64,000 nucleotides of DNA from Candidatus Eiseniibacteriota bacterium (GTDB taxonomy: Bacteria > Eisenbacteria > RBG-16-71-46 > CAIMUX01 > VGJL01): contig JBHGAY010000028.1 in NCBI GenBank assembly GCA_041946735.1, positions 1-64,000 of the forward strand. The letters run 5' to 3'. Position 1 is the stretch's first letter. Every line of letters starts with the position of its first letter. The notes beneath the pieces are model-generated. The model saw only the letters and a list, made by a program, of their open reading frames with translations, did no database searches and had not been told where the DNA came from. Below are positions 49,578 to 60,417 of the stretch, one piece after another. Position numbers and translations under genes: made by a program.

Positions 49578-49922
49578 AGCGGCGCCCAACGTTCCTCTGG
49601 CTCGCCGAACCTCCGTCCCCTATGCTTACCGCGCATTCGCCGTGGTGGACATACGAGTGGCGCGCTTCGATCCCGTGTTCCTCGTGACCGTTCAAGAGAG
49701 GGAGGTCCGGTGTCTGGTCGTCGCGGCACCATCCCTTGGCAGGACAACCGGCACGAAAGTCTCGTCCGAGCAGTTCGCGGCACCGCGGGGCACGGTGTTT
49801 CGCGTTCCGGCCTGCTAAGGCCCCTTCGAACGTCGCCCCTTCGCCTCTCGCGGCTCCGCTTCGGCTTCCGGCCGGCGCGGCGTCGCTCCGATCGGCCGTT
49901 CCCATCCCTCAGGAGAGATAAC

Positions 49923-51257
49923 GTGAAGAGAGATCCCGTCTCCCGGGTTTCGCTCCCGTCGATTCTGCTGCTGTTGCCGCTCTTCCTGTTCGCGATCGGA
50001 GCGGTTGCTCCCGTTCGCGCCCAGGAGGCGCCGCGTCCCGTTCCCGAAACGACCCTGATCACGCTCGATGCCGATCAGATCGCCCTGACCGAAATTCTCC
50101 AGATCCTGGCGAATCGAGCAGGTCTCAACATCGTGACGAGCCCGGGCGTGCAGGATCGCCGGATCTCGCTCCACCTGAAGAACACGCCGTTCTACGAAGC
50201 GCTGAACCTCGTCGTGCGGGCCGCCGGTCTCGGTTACGAGCGGGTCGGCAACTCGATCCTGGTCGCCGACGTCCAGACGCTCAGCACCGAAACCGGTTTC
50301 GTGACGCGCGTCTTCGATCTCCAGTACGCGAGCGCCCAGGATGCGCAGAAGTTCCTGAACGTGATCAGCCAGGACGTAGAGGCGAACGTCTCCGGGGAGC
50401 AGCTGATCGTCCGCGGAAGCCCGTCCACGATCGAGCAGGTCGCGCAGGCGATCCAGCAGCTCGACCGCAAGCCGGCGCAAATCCTGCTCGAAGCGAGGCT
50501 CATCGAGGTCAACGCGAGCCGCTTGTGGGAGATGGGGATCGACTGGGAGAAGGTCATGAAGTTCTCCACGATCTTCACCGAGGGGGCTGTCGGGTCTTCC
50601 GCCCCGGGCGACCTTCCGGACGAGCTGGACTACGTCCCGGCCGACCAGACGGCCGACATCTACCGGCAGCTGGCCTACGCCCAGGTGGACCTCGACCTGC
50701 TCCTGACCGACGGCGCGGCCCGCCTGCTCTCGAACTCGAAGATCGTGACGCTCAACAACACCTCGGCGGAGATCTTCTCCGGCGAGACGGTGCCGGTGAT
50801 CGTCAGCTCGCTCGCCTCCCCCGCCGGCGGCGGCGGCGTGCTCCAGACGGTGCAAGTGGAGAAGATCGACGTCGGCGTCAAGCTGGTCGTGACGCCGCGC
50901 ATCTCCTCCGATGGCCTGATCACGGTCCTCGTCGAACCCGAGGTCTCCCGGATCATCGCCTTCGTCGGGCCGGCCAGCGACCTGCCCCAGACCTCGACCC
51001 GGCGCGCCCGCTCGCTCGTGCGCGTACACGACGGGGAGAAGATCTTCCTCGGCGGCCTGCTCTCGGACGAGACGCGCAAGACCGTCAAGAAGGTGCCGAT
51101 CCTCGGGCAGATCCCCATCCTCGGCGCACTGTTCCAGCACTATCGCGACGACCACACGCGGCTCGATCTCCTGATCGAGATCACGCCGCACATCGTCGGT
51201 GACACCGGCTCGGCGCTCCCCGACTCCACCCACTTCGGACCGCAGGAAATCAAGTAG
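49923..51257 (+). CDS. Secretin (PilQ/GspD family), ~444 aa
   Basis: GTG start with AGGAG RBS and signal peptide. STN and N domains, 'QILLEARLIEV', 'GVKLVVTPRI', 'KVPILGQIPILGALF'. Confidence 0.92.
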   Translation: MKRDPVSRVSLPSILLLLPLFLFAIGAVAPVRAQEAPRPVPETTLITLDADQIALTEILQILANRAGLNIVTSPGVQDRRISLHLKNTPFYEALNLVVRAAGLGYERVGNSILVADVQTLSTETGFVTRVFDLQYASAQDAQKFLNVISQDVEANVSGEQLIVRGSPSTIEQVAQAIQQLDRKPAQILLEARLIEVNASRLWEMGIDWEKVMKFSTIFTEGAVGSSAPGDLPDELDYVPADQTADIYRQLAYAQVDLDLLLTDGAARLLSNSKIVTLNNTSAEIFSGETVPVIVSSLASPAGGGGVLQTVQVEKIDVGVKLVVTPRISSDGLITVLVEPEVSRIIAFVGPASDLPQTSTRRARSLVRVHDGEKIFLGGLLSDETRKTVKKVPILGQIPILGALFQHYRDDHTRLDLLIEITPHIVGDTGSALPDSTHFGPQEIK

Positions 51258-53129: not shown

Positions 53130-55883
53130 ATGATGAAGCGCGTCTGGTTGGTCTTGGCGATCGCCGGTCTGGTGCTGGCCTTCGCATGCGAGAAGAACGA
53201 CGATGTCACCAACCCCGACGACACGGAAGACGGCGGCGGGATCGCCCCGGACGAGATCGATTTCGCCCGGACCTTCCCTCCCTTGCTCGCGAACGGCGCC
53301 GACGCGGTGCAAGTCGTGGCGACCGTCGTCGACTCGCGCGGCCGTGGCCTTTCCGGCGTGAAGGTGAACTTCTCCACGACGGAAGGGACGATCGACGGCT
53401 TCGCGCTGTCCGGCGACCGGGGCAAGGCGATCGCGACCCTGACGAGCGAAGCGTCGGCCGTCGACCTCGTGGCCACCGTGACGGCCGAGGCGAGCACGAG
53501 CCCGGTCGGGCAGGTGCAGGCAGAACGGGTCGACGGGGCGGCGGAGGGCGCGGGCGAAAGCGCGGGCGAGAAGCCGATCGTCCTGCTCTCCAACCAGCCG
53601 CTGAGCGGCGACGCGGTCGCCGCGGCGCTGCGGGCGCGCGCGGCGAAGCTCTCGAGCGGGCCGGAGGCGGTCGCAAGCGGCACGGCGTTGACGGCGGCCG
53701 CCGGCACGATCTCCGACGAGGTCCAGGTGCCGATGCTCGGCCTCACCCTCGCCCTGCGCGCCGACCCGGCCGCGCTCCCCGGCGACGGCATCCGGTCCAG
53801 CCGGATCGAGGCGAAGCTCCTCGAGACGACGCGGCGCGTGCCGGTCTCGGGTCAGGAGATCCGCTTCGGAACGACCGCCGGCACCATCACCGGCGCCATC
53901 GCGACCGACGAGTCGGGGATTGCCGAAGCCACGTTGACGAGCGAGCCGGGCGCTGCGTCGGCCGCGGTGACCGCCTACTACGGCGGCGATATGACCGCGA
54001 CCGTCACCGTCCCGTTCGAGGCGCTCGCCTTGACGTTGGAAGCGTCGAGCCCCGAGATCCCGGCCGACGGCGTGTCTGAGGTGCAGGTGGCGGCTCGCCT
54101 GCGCACGGCGAGCGGCGCCGCGGTCACGAACGCCCGGATCGAATTCACGACGACGCTCGGCACGATCGGCTCTCCGGTTGCGACCGACGAGGGCGGGGTC
54201 GCCCTCACCTCCCTGCGAGCCGGCAGCGCGACCGGCACCGCGGCCGTTCGCGCCAGCTTCGGCGAGGACCTCACGCAGTCGGTCGCCGTGACGTTCACCC
54301 AGCCGCCGGAGACGGCATCGCTTCTCTTCCACGCCGACCCTGTGGCGCTCGCCGCCGACGGCATCAGCGAGAGCCGGCTGATCGCCGACGCGCTCGACGC
54401 GGATGGCAACCCGATGCGCGACGGAACAGTCGTGGTTTTCTCGATCGTCTCGGGCGGCGGCCAGATCGTCTCCCCCGTCGCCGCGACCAGCGGCGGCCGC
54501 GCCGAGGCCACCTACGTCGCGGGAACGACCGCCGGCGACGTGCGCCTGCGGGCGACGTCGGGCGCCGCGCAAGCGGAAGAAGTCGTCCAGCTCGCGGCAT
54601 CCGGACCGGGCGGGCTCATCCTCGAGACCGAGCCCGGCCCGAGCATCCTTGCCGACGGCCTCGAGTGGACGGAGATCCGCGCGACCGTCACCGACCGCTT
54701 CGGCAACCCCGTCCCGGCCGGGACCGCGGTCGACTTCTCGACGAGCCGCGGCGTCCTCTTCGACGCCCAGCCGACCGACGCTTCCGGCGTCGCCACCGTC
54801 CGCCTGCGCTCCGAGCGCTTCGTGACGGGAACGGCCCGCGTGATCGCCAAGGTCGGCTCGCTGCAGCAGGTCCTCGACGTCCGGTTCGTGTCGGAAGCCG
54901 GGGCCCACGTCGAGGCGCTGAGCGCCCAGCCGCCGGCCATCGGGGTCCGCGGCGCCGGCGATCACGAGACGTCGACCGTGATCTTCCAGGTGCAGGACCG
55001 TCACGGCATCCCGGTCGACGAGGACCACGCAGTCGTGCTCGACTTCCATCTCGAGCAGCCTCAGAACACCGACGCGACGCTCTATCCGGAGTCGGCGGCG
55101 ACCGACGCGCGCGGCCTTGCCTGGACGACCGTGAACGCCGGCTTCCGCTCCGGAACGGTCGGGATCGCGGCGACGTCCGGTTCGCTCTACGGCGAGCCGA
55201 TCTTCGTCGCCATCCACGGCGGGAAGCCCGACGAGCGGCACTTCTCCATCTCCTTCGAGCGGCTGAACATTGCCGGGTTGGTCTACGACGGCATCCGCAA
55301 CGCGATCACCGCTCGAGTCGGCGACCGCTGGGGCAACCCGGTCCCCGACTCGACCCGCGTCTGGTTCCGCGCCGAGTACGGTCTCATCCAGGGGAGCGAG
55401 GGAAGCACCGAGTTCGGCGAGGCTACGGTGCAGGAGATCACAGCCGGGCCGCATCCGCAGATCCCGGGCGGAGACGGCCTGGTGCTCCTCACGGCGCAAA
55501 CGGTCGACAGCACGGCCCAATGGATCGAGACCGCCGGCCACGTCATGTGGTCGGGACCGACGATCGTCGAGATCCTGGAGCCTTCCAACGGGTTCGACAT
55601 TCCCAACGGCGGGTCGATCAACATCACCTATCGCGTGCGCGACGCGAACTTCAACCCGCTGGTCGGCGGAACGTCGATCACCATGTCCGCCACGGCGGGA
55701 GAGCTGGGCGGCGACGTCGGTTTCACCCTCCCGGACACGCAGAGCCGCAGCTACACGATGTTCGGCGGCACCCTGAGCGACGACGATCCGGAGACGAACG
55801 AGCCCGAGAGCGTCACGATCACCGTCACCGTCACGAGCCAGAACGGGAACCGAGCCGCGAGGGTGACAGGCATCAAGCATTGA
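53130..55883 (+). CDS. Invasin/intimin-like lipoprotein with tandem bacterial Ig-like (Big_1) domains, 917 aa
   Basis: Lipobox 'LAFA-C'. About 6-7 repeats of '.ADG......ATV.D..GNP...V.F.T..G......TD..G.A...L'. Confidence 0.85.
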   Translation: MMKRVWLVLAIAGLVLAFACEKNDDVTNPDDTEDGGGIAPDEIDFARTFPPLLANGADAVQVVATVVDSRGRGLSGVKVNFSTTEGTIDGFALSGDRGKAIATLTSEASAVDLVATVTAEASTSPVGQVQAERVDGAAEGAGESAGEKPIVLLSNQPLSGDAVAAALRARAAKLSSGPEAVASGTALTAAAGTISDEVQVPMLGLTLALRADPAALPGDGIRSSRIEAKLLETTRRVPVSGQEIRFGTTAGTITGAIATDESGIAEATLTSEPGAASAAVTAYYGGDMTATVTVPFEALALTLEASSPEIPADGVSEVQVAARLRTASGAAVTNARIEFTTTLGTIGSPVATDEGGVALTSLRAGSATGTAAVRASFGEDLTQSVAVTFTQPPETASLLFHADPVALAADGISESRLIADALDADGNPMRDGTVVVFSIVSGGGQIVSPVAATSGGRAEATYVAGTTAGDVRLRATSGAAQAEEVVQLAASGPGGLILETEPGPSILADGLEWTEIRATVTDRFGNPVPAGTAVDFSTSRGVLFDAQPTDASGVATVRLRSERFVTGTARVIAKVGSLQQVLDVRFVSEAGAHVEALSAQPPAIGVRGAGDHETSTVIFQVQDRHGIPVDEDHAVVLDFHLEQPQNTDATLYPESAATDARGLAWTTVNAGFRSGTVGIAATSGSLYGEPIFVAIHGGKPDERHFSISFERLNIAGLVYDGIRNAITARVGDRWGNPVPDSTRVWFRAEYGLIQGSEGSTEFGEATVQEITAGPHPQIPGGDGLVLLTAQTVDSTAQWIETAGHVMWSGPTIVEILEPSNGFDIPNGGSINITYRVRDANFNPLVGGTSITMSATAGELGGDVGFTLPDTQSRSYTMFGGTLSDDDPETNEPESVTITVTVTSQNGNRAARVTGIKH

Positions 55884-56070: not shown

Positions 56071-57264
56071 CTACACGAACCTCTCCCGCAGCCGCCGCGC
56101 AGCGGCCGTCATGCTCCTGAGCTTCGCCGCCGCCGTCTCAGCGTCGTTGACGCAGCGCTGGGCGAAGCAGCCGAAGCCGCAGTCGGGATTCAGGAAGACC
56201 CGCTCGGGCGGGAAAAAGGCGAGCGCCTCCGCGACTCTCGCGACGATCTCCTCGACCGTCTCGACCGCGTCGGTCCGCGGGTTGACGACGCCGAGGCCGA
56301 TCTCCCGCCCCGCGAGCGCCCGGCCGACCACCTCGAACTCGCCCGCGCGCGGCGTGGCGTACTCGAGAACGAACTGGTCGACCCGCATCCGCTGGAAGGC
56401 GGGAAGGAGCGGGGTGTAGTCGCCGCTCAACAGCACCGACTCGTCCCGGCTCCAGTTACCGCGACAGACGTGGAGGCCGATCCGCGGGCGCGACCCGGGG
56501 CCGGCGCCGAGCGGGCCGCGGTCCATGGGAGTCACGACGCCGTCGATCACCCGGTTCAGCAAGTCGGCCGCGTATTCCAGCTCCGTGCCCGCGTCCCGGC
56601 GGGTTGCGAGCGTCGCTCACATGAAGGTGCGGCGTTCACAGTCCTCCGACAGGACGATCTCCGTCAGCACCGGCTCGTCGAACTGGACGAACTCGCAGCC
56701 GGCCGCGGCGAGATCGAACAGCTCCTCGCGCAGGATCCGGACGACGTCGTCCCCCATCTCGGTCTTGTCGCGATAGGCGGCGCCCGAAAACGCGCCGACC
56801 CACATTGCGCGCGTCAGCAGATACGGGCCGGGAAGGGTGATCTTGACCGGCTTGTCGGTCAACGTCCGGAGGAATGCGAGGTCCCCGGCGGCGAGCGGCT
56901 CGCGCCGCGCGAGGCGCCCCACACAGGTCGGGTTGCGGATCGAGGAGGCGGGGACGTCGAGGGTGTCGAGCATCTCCTCGAACGCCGCCTTGTCCTCGAC
57001 GGTGTCGAGCATCTCGGCGAGCGACATCAGACGCGTCCCTTCGAGCTTCTCCGTGACGAAGGAGTAGAAGTTGTCGCGGCGGATTTCGCCGTCGACGACC
57101 ACGTCCACCCCCGCATCGTGCTGCGCAGCGACGCAGGCGGCGATCTCGCGACCAGCGATCTCGTCGAACTGCTCCCGCGACATCCGTCCGCGCTGCTTCT
57201 CTCGCAGCGCCGCGAGAAGCTCGCGCGAGCGCGGCCAGCTTCCGACCTGGGTCACGTCGAACAT
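56071..57264 (-). CDS. Cobalamin-independent methionine synthase II (MetE C-terminal-like) family protein with in-frame TGA (probable Sec216), 397 aa
   Basis: RBS GGAGG before ATG 57264. 'GSWPR', 'DGEIRR', 'KITLPGP', 'QFDEP', and Zn ligands 'LHVCRGN', 'LEYA', 'NPDCGFG'. ORFs 56617..57348 and 56071..56562 are in the same frame, joined through TGA 56617-56619 (RTFM-U-ATLA). Confidence 0.88.
56581..56616 (-). promoter_or_regulatory. Candidate bacterial SECIS element for the MetE-like gene
   Basis: TGA-GCGACGCTCGCAA-CCCGC-CGGGAC-GCGGG-CACGGAG. The apical loop follows 18 nt after the UGA and has G at loop position 2. Confidence 0.65.
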
Positions 57265-57276
57265 GCGATCCTCCGT

Positions 57277-57348
57277 CGCTGCGGCCGTCCGCACCGCGTC
57301 GGTCGCCCGCACTGCGGCGGTCGCCGGCACTGCCGCGGCCGTCCGCAC
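57277..57348. repeat. Four imperfect 18-bp tandem repeats upstream of the MetE-like RBS
   Basis: Minus strand: GTGCGGACGGCCGCGGCA / GTGCCGGCGACCGCCGCA / GTGCGGGCGACCGACGCG / GTGCGGACGGCCGCAGCG. Confidence 0.7.
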
Positions 57349-57379: not shown

Positions 57380-58147
57380 TCACAGAATCACCAGCTTGCA
57401 CGAAAGCGCGGTCGCCCGCGCGAGCGTGACGGCGACCGGAGAGCGGGCGACCGTCCGCTCCCATGCCTCGCGCACCGCCGCCGGCTCGGCGCCGGTCGAA
57501 GCGAAGCACTTCACATCGACCTGCGCGAGCCCCGGGTCCCCTTCGCCCAGGCCGAGCGGGGCAAGCGGGTTGCCCAGACGCCCACGGACCGTCAGCTCCA
57601 CGTCGTCGACGTCGAGGCCGGAGCGCCCGCACTCGGTAGCGAAGCCGCTCGCGAGCGCGGCGCCAAGGGATCCGAGCAGAAGCTCGACGGCCGAAGGGTG
57701 GGCGTCCTTCTCCTCGAAGCTCGCCGGCTGGCCCCCGTGGAACGAGAAGTTCCGGCAGTAGACGGTCGAGCGCTGCGGCCCCGACGCCCGCACGCGCAGC
57801 CGCCACTCGTACGACTCCGCCTTCCGCTTGTCGGCCGCGAGCGCTTCGGCTTCCTTCTCCGCGACCGCACCGCTCCCCTTGCGGACGAAGTAGCGCACCC
57901 CGCTCGCGTTTCCGCCGCCCGGCAGCGCTCCGAGGAACTGGTGCCCGACCATCCGGCACCACGGCGGCAGGTCGTCCCGGACCGTCGGCTCGCGCGAGCG
58001 CATCTCGAGGATCCCTCCTTCGGGGACCGCGAGCATCTGCTCGCGGATCAGAAGGACGAGCCCCGACCCGCAGTCCAGATCCCCGCCGTCGAAAACCCGG
58101 TCGGGACGGAGCCGCTCGAGAGATTCGGGAGATTCCTCGCCCGCCAT
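57380..58147 (-). CDS. TusA/SirA-like sulfur-carrier domain fused to an OsmC-like domain, 255 aa
   Basis: 'FDGGDLDCGSG...DDLPPWCRMVGH' (TusA-like) and 'HPSAVELLLGSLG...RSPVAVTL' (OsmC-like, Cys-less). RBS GGAGGG. Confidence 0.85.
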   Translation of the reverse strand: MAGEESPESLERLRPDRVFDGGDLDCGSGLVLLIREQMLAVPEGGILEMRSREPTVRDDLPPWCRMVGHQFLGALPGGGNASGVRYFVRKGSGAVAEKEAEALAADKRKAESYEWRLRVRASGPQRSTVYCRNFSFHGGQPASFEEKDAHPSAVELLLGSLGAALASGFATECGRSGLDVDDVELTVRGRLGNPLAPLGLGEGDPGLAQVDVKCFASTGAEPAAVREAWERTVARSPVAVTLARATALSCKLVIL

Positions 58148-58163: not shown

Positions 58164-58529
58164 TCAGTAGGAGATGCAGGGAGTCCCGCCGGAGAGGAAC
58201 TCGACGAGCGCCGCTCCCCCGGCCGGCGTCGCTCCGGCGATCAGCCGCTCCGGCTCAATCGAGCGCTTCTTCATGCAAGGGGTGCAGACGAGGATCGTCC
58301 CGCCTCCGGCGACGAACTTGTCGACCAGCTCCTTCAGCGGCGCGAACGGCGCGCCTTCGTTCACCTTCTCGTATTCCCCCTGGACGGCGGCCCAGACGCC
58401 GTCGGTCGAGAGGAAGACCATCGTCTCCTTCTCGCTGCCAAGGGCGGCGTTCGCGACGACAAAGCCGACGGTCGCGGAGTCGCCGTTCTCCTTGCAGCGG
58501 GTGATCGAAACGCAGAACTTCTCGCTCAT
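58164..58529 (-). CDS. DsrE/DsrF-like sulfur relay protein, 121 aa
   Basis: RBS AGGAGA and ATGA overlap. 'VVANAA', 'VFLSTDGV', 'ILVCTPCMKKR'. Confidence 0.88.
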   Translation of the reverse strand: MSEKFCVSITRCKENGDSATVGFVVANAALGSEKETMVFLSTDGVWAAVQGEYEKVNEGAPFAPLKELVDKFVAGGGTILVCTPCMKKRSIEPERLIAGATPAGGAALVEFLSGGTPCISY

Positions 58530-58831
58530 GGTCGGTTCTCCTCCTTTGATGGTGGCCGGCCGGGGGTCGCTCCCCCGTGGCCGGGACGGACACGGACCAG
58601 ATAGAACGGGTGACGCGCATCGAGCAGCTCGTGCCCCGTGACGCGGCACCAGGCGCGCATCTCGACCGGCGCCCCCGGATCGCGCGCGAGGATCGCGACG
58701 CGCGCGCCGGGCGGCAGCGGCCGGAAGTGGATCCGGAGATCGATCAGGATCTCGCCGCAGCCGGTGTCCCGGCCATCGAAGCGGGAGTCCGGGCGCCAGT
58801 CGGACGGCATCTCTTCCCATCCCGCCATCAT
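58526..58831 (-). CDS. TusA family sulfurtransferase/sulfur carrier, ~101 aa
   Basis: 'FDGRDTGCGE...DPGAPVEMRAWCRVTGHEL'. ATGA overlaps at both ends. Confidence 0.85.
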   Translation of the reverse strand: MMAGWEEMPSDWRPDSRFDGRDTGCGEILIDLRIHFRPLPPGARVAILARDPGAPVEMRAWCRVTGHELLDARHPFYLVRVRPGHGGATPGRPPSKEENRP

Positions 58832-59937
58832 TCCGCCGTCGACTCCCCCGGCGCGGCCGGGTTCGGGCCGAACCTCCAGGCGGCCGAGAGCTGGAGCGTC
58901 CACTCCTGCACGTTGCCGCCGTTCTGTTGCACATTCCGGTAGACGGTCAACGGCACGGTCGCCGAGAGCGAGATGTCGTCCCGCGGCGACCAGTCGAGCC
59001 CCGGACCGACGAGGACGATCGGTCCGGCGCGCCGGAACCCCTCCGTATCGCCGATCAGGTCGTCGTACGGGACCCAGGCGACGTCGGCCACGGCGCGCGC
59101 GGCGAAGCGGCTCAGCGTCCCGCCGTTCAGACCCAGCAGGCTCCGGAAGGTGACACGCAGCGTCGCGGCGTCGGAGTCGGAGTTCTTCTCGGGCGCCGCG
59201 GAGGCCGGGTTCAGCTCGTGGCGGAAGTTGTTCACGGTCGTGGCGGACGGCGTGAAGACATAGCGCGCCGTCGCGCCGAGGCCGAAGCGCTCGCCGAGCG
59301 GACGGCTGCCTCCCAGCTCGATGATCCCCGCCCAGTTGCCCGTCCCTTCCTGGGCGGCCAGGTCCTTCGTGACGAGCGTGCCGTTCTTCGCGCGGAACTT
59401 CCCATCCGATCTGCCGGTGGGAAGGCGCGCGCCGAGCGAGACGTAGGCGGCGAGCCCCGGCCCGCCGGAGCCGCCGGAGCCGCCGGCCGCGAACCAGTAG
59501 CGAGCGAGCAGGCGGATGTCGCCCAGGCCGTTCGCCTGCATGTTGCCGGCGACACCACCGAACTCGCGGCTCTGCTCGTTGTGGACGAACGGGACCTCCG
59601 CGGCCACGGTGAATCGCTCGGAGAGGTCGTACTCGGCGGAGATCAAATGCTCGATCCCGAGGGTGGCGGGAGCGACGTTCGTCTCGGTCGCATCATCGCG
59701 CTCCTCACCGATGTAGTAGTGGTCGGTGTCCGAGTAGGTGAACCCGTACCCGAGTCGGAGCGAGCCGGGCAGATTGGCGTGCTGGATCTCCCCGACGGGG
59801 AGCGAGACCGGCACTCACCCACAGCCGCCGGCGAGCGCGCGGATCGGAACGGCGACGAGAGCGAGCGAAAGCGAGAGCGCGGCGAGTCTCGCGAGACTCA
59901 TGAGTCCCGAGAGTCTCGAGATCTTCTTGTTGCACAT
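58828..59937 (-). CDS. Outer-membrane beta-barrel (MetA-pathway/'transporter'-like) with N-terminal C-x-U motif (probable Sec41), 369 aa
   Basis: RBS GGAGG before ATG 59937. Signal peptide MCNKKISRLSGLMSLARLAALSLSLALVAVPIRALA, then GG-C-G-TGA(59815-59817)-VPVSLP in frame with the 58828..59814 ORF. Barrel motifs 'AAEVPFV', 'GLGDIRL', 'GARLPTG', 'QEGTG'. Confidence 0.82.
59785..59814 (-). promoter_or_regulatory. Candidate bacterial SECIS element for the barrel gene
   Basis: TGA-GTGCCGGTCTCG-CTCCCC-GTC-GGGGAG-ATC. Perfect 6-bp stem with a GU-starting loop that follows 18 nt after the UGA. Confidence 0.7.
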
Positions 59938-60417
59938 GAGAGCGGACTACCTCCCTGCGGCCGTTCGAACTGCCCAGAAACACCATGCCTCGCAAGACCC
60001 GAGGAAGCTCACGACAGCAGATCTGGGCGATTTGTCGAACCGAGGGAGTCCCGAAGGATGTCAGGCGCTCGGAGGGTTCAGCGACGCGCAGTCACGCTGC
60101 CGCGACGAGCAGCGCACTCAGGTGAACGGGGGCCGTTCCCAGGTCTCTTGGAGGACCTTGCGCATCGTTTCCTTCCGTTGAACGCGGAGCCGGCCGCAAT
60201 CGATTCGTCGGCGGCAGCTCCCATGGCCGTCTTCCGGGCAGGACGGTCGGCACCGTCGCCTCGCCCGGCTCAAGAGCATGACGGTCGAACATACGCGGTG
60301 GCGTGGGCGGCCGGCAACGGAAAACTGAGGCGGACCGACGGTCCACCCTCGGCGGCCGACCGGCGCCTGGAACTGTGCGGCGTCGGGAGAGCGTCGAGCT
60401 CCCCCGACTTCCTGCGG

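Follow-up and report, generated by a model that had tools for sequence, protein, structure and literature searches.

A probable selenocysteine-containing outer-membrane channel encoded with sulfur-relay-type proteins in Candidatus Eisenbacteria

Known channels of the COG4313 family (PF13557, Phenol_MetA_deg) are linked to the uptake of hydrophobic molecules such as trichlorophenol and sphingosine. One of them, Pput2725 of Pseudomonas putida F1 (4RL8), is a monomeric 12-stranded barrel whose N-terminal 14 residues are described in PMC4493636 as occupying the barrel lumen. FapF (PDB 5O65/5O67), a pore for protein secretion, is trimeric and has a coiled coil and a helical plug. Among selenoproteins, the only outer-membrane barrel in Table 1 of the 2026 review PMC13188914 is the GSU2204 family of the MtrB/PioB type (NF041027). 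Here, a gene from Candidatus Eisenbacteria is described (58828-59937, minus strand) that lies in a stretch of 64,000 nucleotides of contig JBHGAY010000028.1, referred to below as the window. The best overall explanation, and a likely one, is that it is one gene for an exported barrel channel that contains selenocysteine (Sec), encoded by an in-frame TGA near the start of the mature protein.

The predicted protein shares features with each of these systems, and differs from each. Like Pput2725, it is modelled as a monomeric 12-stranded barrel of similar size, but the N-terminal extension that bears Cys and Sec belongs to the window's family, which, unlike the known COG4313 members, is linked to an operon of sulfur-relay-type proteins. 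FapF lacks a Cys/Sec motif, and the window gene has no fap genes in its vicinity. The GSU2204 family is also an outer-membrane β-barrel predicted to contain Sec; however, it is a large barrel of the porin-cytochrome type with a CXXCH motif. Thiol/selenol pairs, adjacent or one residue apart, are found in the C-x-U selenoproteins (rhodanese form 3, NF041203; UshA-like, NF041198; thioredoxin-like Sec.1), but these, like thioredoxin reductase, are soluble enzymes of unrelated folds, whereas the pair in the window's protein would tip a membrane barrel.

Selenocysteine decoding of the barrel gene

With translation table 11, the barrel appears as an open reading frame (ORF) of 328 residues (58828..59814, minus strand) whose GTG start (59814-59812) lies directly behind an in-frame TGA (59817-59815). 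A 40-codon ORF with an ATG start at 59937 (59937..59815, minus strand) lies upstream in the same frame. The read-through product begins with MCNKKISRLSGLMSLARLAALSLSLALVAVPIRALA, the signal peptide, and continues after the cleavage site with GGCGUVPVSLPVGE. The preliminary description of this DNA, made from its letters, had noted the GTG start without a signal peptide behind the TGA, the ribosome-binding site, ATG and signal peptide ending in ALA that read-through adds, the mature GGCGU start, and a perfect CTCCCC-GTC-GGGGAG hairpin; all of these are present on the minus strand as described, the hairpin at 59802-59788 (Table 1). Contigs from an independent metagenome run of a different study (X2) span 59641-60300 with no difference from the window, while another run (X1), which is possibly the source sample, was excluded from independent confirmation. 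An assembly slip at the TGA is excluded by the identity of the X2 contigs and by the TGA that four other species carry at this codon. An alternative genetic code was ruled out: the barrel gene itself ends in TGA and the Sec machinery of the genome is normal.

Comparison with relatives indicates that the UGA at 59817-59815 is very probably decoded as Sec by the SelB/tRNA-Sec system. Eleven species genomes carry the barrel gene; five have TGA and six have Cys (TGC or TGT) at the identical codon, each behind an in-frame ATG and a signal peptide. The species-representative genome collection holds 10 barrel loci, four with TGA (L021-L024) and six with TGC or TGT (L025-L030). Within the window's phylum the barrel gene is found in 8 of 206 genomes, which add only a partial second Cys copy (L041). 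A scan of metagenome contigs gave two loci only, one duplicating L030 and one without the N-terminus, and a search of 12 genomes of a second phylum gave no further barrel loci.

A protein search returned 40 relatives of the barrel, all at E ≤ 3.4e-88. P0002, which is the window's ORF in its truncated form, was excluded, and the other 39 were aligned with the read-through protein. In 18 of the 39, a signal peptide ending in Ala is followed by xxCGCVP ([GST][GA]-C-G-C-V-P-[VI]-S), while 15 start exactly one residue past the U position ([MV]PVSLPVGE) and the other six are cut elsewhere. Three of the truncated records, P0009, P0010 and P0022, are encoded in L022, L023 and L024, and their truncation is due to the TGA that all three have upstream in their DNA. 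A lack of Cys in homologues at this position had been named in the preliminary description as a refutation of the Sec reading; the TGA is instead aligned with Cys in 18 database homologues and six species genomes. The maximum-likelihood tree was built from 39 rows of the sequence after the motif, without the N-terminus (P0039 was dropped as too short). On this tree Cys and truncated forms interleave, well-supported branches demand at least four changes, and a Cys form is the sister of the window's protein (support 97/90). Repeated exchange of Sec and Cys at one invariant position is given in PMC13188914 as a standard signature for calling selenoproteins.

The Cys at the mature tip extends beyond the close relatives. 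A profile search of 1.84 billion representatives gave 549 proteins at E ≤ 0.001 and just eight at E ≤ 1e-30, so the CGC/CGU subfamily is small. Many distant relatives have a signal peptide ending in Ala followed by QGC, with CGC in P0049 and CC in P0048. Since distant relatives also carry Cys there, a Cys at the mature tip is, on sequence grounds, an old feature of this barrel branch. In P0053-P0075 and others, the Ala-QGC junction is often accompanied by a second Cys 6-10 residues further on. Some distant representatives, among them P0058, P0059, P0063 and P0074, lack a signal peptide and may be more TGA-truncated forms.

The hairpin downstream of the UGA would direct its decoding as Sec. In the consensus for the bacterial selenocysteine insertion sequence (bSECIS) given in PMC13188914, the apical loop has 3-9 nt and the upper stem 4-16 bp (Fig. 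2 of that review), G is found in the first two loop positions and is usually followed by G or U, the distance from UGA to loop is 16-37 nt, and the energy is ≤ -7.5 kcal/mol. With a G-U-C loop of 3 nt, a stem of 6 bp, a spacing of 18 nt and a fold energy of -10.3 kcal/mol, the barrel hairpin lies within this consensus on all four counts. The same energy is equalled by 8 of 200 shuffles. A perfect 6-bp Watson-Crick hairpin (loop 3-7 nt) starting at nt 16 is found behind 299 of the 79,303 TGA triplets in the genome (0.38%), and behind 1,455 of them (1.8%) if it may start anywhere from nt 14 to 19. All six stem pairs are kept in the five TGA forms, one of them as a G-U pair that results from a C-to-U change, and the third loop base is the only hairpin position that varies freely among them. 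The hairpins of the SelD gene and of a MetE-type gene in the same genome likewise begin at nt 16-17 after the UGA.

Conservation around the hairpin differs between TGA and Cys forms. Among the TGA forms, near-invariance covers 30 nt counted from the TGA and does not extend to the following 30 nt. Of their codon pairs at conserved residues, 70 of 90 (0.78) are identical in the nine codons that follow the site, compared with 703 of 1370 (0.51) elsewhere in the gene. The six complete Cys forms, counted without the partial copy L041, show 32 of 75 (0.43) after the site and 1093 of 1800 (0.61) elsewhere. The synonymous sites behind the site are frozen in the TGA forms only. The hairpin is intact in two of the complete Cys forms (L027 and L028) and lost in the other four.

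The machinery for Sec decoding is present in the window's genome (4.89 Mb in 72 contigs, 94.8% complete). The tRNA-Sec (72 bits; called tRNA-SeC with anticodon tca by ARAGORN), SelB (349 bits), SelA (479 bits) and SelD (388 bits) are all over the curated cut-offs, and SelB and tRNA-Sec are above cut-off in all 10 other genomes that carry the barrel. The Sec read-through proposed in the preliminary description is thus supported by the same-codon TGA in other species, the Cys homologues, the hairpin and the machinery. The SelD of this genome is a selenoprotein as well (..ACAG-U-ASK..; contig C2:108941-109867, minus strand), with an 8-bp hairpin that starts 12 nt past its UGA.

Export and the predicted barrel

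The signal peptide and its cleavage site were judged by inspection of features and conservation. In all 19 full-length members (18 database proteins and the window's), position -1 is Ala and position -3 is Ala, Ser or Gly, and the n-regions hold 1-5 Lys or Arg residues. Signal peptidase I would cut after Ala36, so that the mature protein starts with G-G-C-G-U. When the Cys is tested as part of a lipobox, which calls for Leu, Val or Ile at -3 before it, all 19 members instead have Ala there, and a signal peptidase I site of the AxA type therefore fits better. The segment that follows, CG[C/U]VP[VI]SLPVGE, is a nearly invariant N-terminal extension of the barrel family. Export with a C-G-U pair at the mature N-terminus, as first proposed, is supported by the conserved signal peptide and its AxA end.

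The AlphaFold2 model of the mature protein, based on an alignment of 130 sequences, is a 12-stranded barrel with a predicted local distance difference test score (pLDDT) of 91.7 and a predicted template modelling score (pTM) of 0.89. The outer-membrane barrel of the preliminary description is thereby borne out at the level of a confident model. Residues 8-23 are not in strands and have a pLDDT of about 82. In a VIA-align search the top match is Pput2725 (4rl8; Z 24.3), with a root-mean-square deviation of 2.7 Å over 259 of 268 residues; residues 9-320 of the model align to chain residues 1-268 at a sequence identity of 12%. FapF and the COG4313 channel Pput2725 are the top Foldseek matches (E ~1e-10 to 3e-11), FapF reaching E 3e-11 and template modelling scores by target of 0.66-0.70, and, in the VIA-align search, Z 21.2. 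The copper channel PcoB is also among the structural matches (Z 13.0). The protein would thus be an outer-membrane barrel of the COG4313/FapF type with 12 strands. By analogy with Pput2725, residues 9-23 would plug the barrel, with the C-G-U tip reaching out from the free end of the plug. The plug-like N-terminus suggested earlier fits the lumen-filling N-terminus of Pput2725, while the placement of the tip is drawn by analogy; residues 1-7, and only these, are modelled at a pLDDT below 50.

Family profiles place the barrel loosely. A homologue with 67% identity, P0004, matches PF13557 with 29.5 bits (cut-off 22) over profile positions 38-109 of 242 only, and nine relatives (P0026, P0045, P0048, P0049, P0053, P0054, P0056, P0062 and P0069) are below the cut-off for this profile or do not match it. 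The sole match of P0072 is to an unrelated family, below cut-off. No model in NCBIfam release 20 covers the barrel, and NF041027 gives no match at E ≤ 0.01. Text searches show no PF13557/phenol or PF01717/methionine synthase entry in Table 1 of PMC13188914, and no related term in deep-Sep (PMC12013277). A literature search gave nothing related on selenocysteine with MetA-pathway channels, or on SECIS elements with a cobalamin-independent methionine synthase selenoprotein. Apparently, the barrel family is in none of the catalogues searched, and it could still figure in Haft & Tolstoy 2025 or in Table S2 of BSepDB. A Sec-containing outer-membrane channel had been called unusual in the preliminary description. 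This holds insofar as Table 1 of PMC13188914 has only one unrelated case, but that case, GSU2204, makes the claim overstated. As a feature peculiar to the window's barrel, a Gly/Ser-rich loop insertion, GGSGGSGG (~59380-59400, minus strand; precursor residues ~150-160), is present in none of the 39 aligned homologues.

The operon behind the barrel gene

Four genes follow the barrel gene in the window (Table 1), and the order TusA, DsrE, TusA/OsmC and MetE behind the barrel is found in the window and in 6 of 10 loci, with stops and starts that overlap or lie close together. Across loci, identity is 74-86% for the DsrE-like protein and 71-76% for the TusA/OsmC fusion. The conserved Cys is present in both TusA-like domains. 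The DsrE-like protein falls among DsrE and 'peroxiredoxin family' clusters in the Atlas, and a PDB sequence search with it gave no matches. None of the operon partners matches an NCBIfam selenium-metabolism model, and no literature was found that links TusA, DsrE and OsmC. Beside the TusA/DsrE sulfur-relay systems there is a selenium-linked pair, YedE/YedF. The window operon resembles these systems in its TusA-like and DsrE-like domains with conserved Cys, but differs from them in that it has no YedE-type membrane transporter and that both of its TusA-like domains are below the Pfam cut-off.

The MetE-type gene, whose real start is probably ATG 57264, has its own in-frame TGA (..RRTFM-U-ATL..) at the identical codon in all seven loci, with a conserved hairpin 18 nt downstream. 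At this site Cys is found in 118 of 120 full-length database homologues, and the other two did not fit the search pattern. The gene is thus a well-supported second case of Sec/Cys correspondence and would encode another apparently uncatalogued selenoprotein. Sec is kept in it even at loci with a Cys-form barrel. In four of four other loci (L048-L051), from four other genomes of the phylum, MetE relatives of the Cys type adjoin only an OsmC-like gene, which makes the pairing of MetE and OsmC the older core. One TGA each was also recorded in the MetE-type gene of further genomes of the phylum (G006, G007, G012 and G015).

Barrel and cassette also occur apart. The barrel has no cassette behind it in L021, L025 and L026, while L023 is too short to tell; the cassette has no barrel in front in G006 (L045), G007 (L046) and G015 (L047). 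Since each occurs alone, the functional link between them is frequent, not obligatory. The flanks of these lone loci hold unrelated genes only (protease, desaturase, GH94, histidine kinase, VWA, kinase and FGE-sulfatase), and no inner-membrane transporter or metal-resistance gene is found in the scanned flanks. Between 55500 and 61000, Rfam (E ≤ 1) gives no riboswitch or other RNA family; a promoter scan gives no sites, and terminator-like sites are at chance level. The neighbouring genes in the window have no relation to the operon: an LVIVD-repeat protein with a FlgD-Ig/secretion-tail end (60418-62706, minus strand), a Big_1/invasin-repeat protein (53130-55883, plus strand) and a secretin (49710-51257, plus strand).

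Table 1. Positions in the window of the elements of the barrel gene and of the genes behind it
Feature	Coordinates	Strand	Basis and remarks
Shine-Dalgarno-like GGGAGG	59950..59955	minus	12-nt spacer to ATG; read from sequence
Signal peptide, 36 codons, ATG 59937, A-L-A end	59830..59937	minus	n-region with 4 K/R, hydrophobic core, AxA end
Predicted mature N-terminus G-G-C-G-U; Cys codon 59823-59821, putative Sec codon TGA 59817-59815	59815..59829	minus	TGA/Cys alignment with homologues
SECIS-type hairpin CUCCCC-GUC-GGGGAG	59788..59802	minus	12 nt past TGA; UGA to loop 18 nt; fold energy, pair conservation, bSECIS model
Predicted 12-stranded outer-membrane barrel body, including real stop TGA 58830-58828	58828..59814	minus	AlphaFold2 model, structural matches
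TusA-like gene	58526..58831	minus	Pfam TusA (PF01206) 27.2 bits, cut-off 28.6; start overlaps barrel stop (ATGA)
DsrE-like gene, C-x-x-C	58164..58526	minus	PF02635 39.5 bits, cut-off 22.7; start overlaps TusA stop
TusA-like and OsmC-like fusion	57380..58147	minus	OsmC PF02566 42.1 bits, cut-off 27.5; TusA 20.1 bits, below cut-off 28.6
MetE-type (Meth_synt_2) gene, TGA 56619-56617 (U244), hairpin 56603-56588	56071..57348	minus	PF01717 123.4 bits, cut-off 21

Possible role of the Cys-Gly-Sec tip

In animal thioredoxin reductase, a G-C-U-G tail on a flexible terminal arm forms a selenenylsulfide. A comparable arrangement may exist in the window's barrel. The N-terminal segment would lie in the barrel lumen with the Cys-Gly-Sec pair at its tip, and the thiol and selenol, with a single residue between them on a mobile end in or close to the lumen, would form a selenenylsulfide. 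This pair could exchange with a reactive sulfur or selenium compound passing through the channel, candidates being polysulfide, thiosulfate, an organic di- or trisulfide, or a selenotrisulfide. The cargo would then feed a cytoplasmic relay made of the TusA-like protein, the DsrE-like protein, the TusA/OsmC fusion and the Sec-containing MetE-type zinc methyltransferase. That the tip exchanges with reactive sulfur or selenium species and supplies the operon relay is a tentative proposal, possible and rather more likely wrong than right. It is favoured over soft-metal chemistry because the operon partners are of the sulfur-relay type. The preliminary description had proposed that the pair binds a soft metal or an S/Se ligand during uptake; of these two, the TusA, DsrE, OsmC and MetE-type selenoenzyme genes point more to sulfur/selenium chemistry. 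A more specific version, in which barrel and operon form a dedicated acquisition route for selenium (or sulfane sulfur), with selenium species captured at the tip by selenosulfide exchange and handed over to the relay and the MetE-type enzyme, is quite unlikely.

Four other explanations deserve consideration, and in the first two the Sec residue is real. The Cys-Gly-Sec tip may bind a soft metal (Cu(I), Hg(II), Ag(I) or Cd) or an organometal, for uptake, sensing or detoxification, since CxC and thiol/selenol pairs are classic soft-metal ligands and PcoB is among the structural matches. However, PcoB lies far below Pput2725 (Z 13.0 against 24.3), no gene for metal resistance, metal sensing or efflux adjoins the barrel in the window or the scanned flanks, and the conserved partners are sulfur-relay-type proteins; this role is unlikely, while being a serious candidate. 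Lipidation of Cys39 after cleavage by signal peptidase II, which would place Sec two residues from a lipid anchor, is improbable. The small residues ahead of the Cys (A-G-G-C in the window; A-[GST]-[GA]-C in relatives) do look like a lipobox and would suit a permissive lipoprotein pattern, but Leu, Val or Ile never stands at -3 to the Cys, where all 19 members have Ala, and the Ala, Ser or Gly at -5 in all 19 is needed by the AxA rule and not by a lipobox. A lumenal N-terminus, as described for the closest structure in PMC4493636, also suits a membrane anchor badly.

The remaining two explanations concern the UGA itself. It could serve as a selenium-dependent gate, with the full channel made when Sec-tRNA is available and translation otherwise stopping after a 40-codon leader, the Sec residue being incidental. 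Its position at the very start of the mature protein makes termination cheap, and the next codon is GTG in all five TGA forms against three of seven Cys-form copies (six complete and the partial L041). Even so, a gate is very improbable: all 18 Cys forms have an invariant Cys at the aligned position, within a CGC motif that is itself invariant, which means that selection acts on the side chain, and Sec and Cys interchange repeatedly, as in functional Sec/Cys pairs. Least credible of all is that the TGA is a true stop, of a pseudogene or of a small upstream ORF, and that translation of the barrel starts at GTG 59814, giving a product that lacks a signal peptide, or does not take place. Automatic gene callers read the locus in this way, 15 database records start there, and an ORF from the GTG is called with table 11. 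However, a barrel needs a signal peptide to reach the outer membrane; the upstream frame is open with a conserved signal peptide in all five TGA-bearing species, the supposed start Val is GTT, which is no start codon, in four of seven Cys-form copies, and the TGA lies exactly at the conserved Cys position and is identical in an independent sample.

Several observations weigh against the reading of the locus as a Sec-containing channel that serves the operon. The TGA forms are a small sample of five from related genomes, and both the decoding as Sec and the selenium content of the protein are deduced from comparison. In 177 of the phylum's 206 genomes SelB is above cut-off, a count that takes in the unpublished genome G072, and since nearly the whole phylum uses Sec, the co-occurrence of the barrel with the Sec machinery is uninformative. 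The hairpin codes for the conserved peptide L-P-V-G-E, so that protein constraint explains part of its conservation; it is retained in two of the six Cys forms, and a wider stretch of 63 nt is no more stable than its shuffles (z -0.37), so only the local hairpin is notable. The read-through protein gives no Pfam or NCBIfam match at E ≤ 0.01, and the seven residues that hold C-G-U are those modelled with low confidence. Barrel and cassette each occur without the other beside it, in three genomes each way. The operon has no inner-membrane transporter and its other four proteins have no signal peptide, so that the operon itself offers no evident path for a periplasmic cargo to the cytoplasmic partners.

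Taken as a Sec-containing channel, the barrel is very probably the product of a genuine, mis-annotated selenoprotein gene with a canonical decoding mechanism, as the comparisons indicate. Gene callers cut the family at the UGA, as in 15 of 39 records, and leave signal-less ORFs of unassigned function; reading through it adds Sec-decoding annotations for an uncultured phylum, Candidatus Eisenbacteria. It would also place a selenoprotein family in the outer membrane, a compartment with one other, unrelated case in the table of PMC13188914. The barrel is linked in the genome to another selenoprotein, of the MetE type and apparently uncatalogued as well, and to sulfur-relay proteins, and its operon is a testable candidate for the trafficking of reactive sulfur or selenium, for which the Cys forms of the barrel offer a ready route to heterologous expression. 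If the acquisition route considered above is true, the barrel would also belong to a wider, unrecognised COG4313-like class with an N-terminal Cys/Sec 'hook' in the lumen. According to PMC13188914, prokaryotes have no known system for selenium transport that is specific and of high affinity, and this route, if true, would be the first specific selenium uptake system in prokaryotes.

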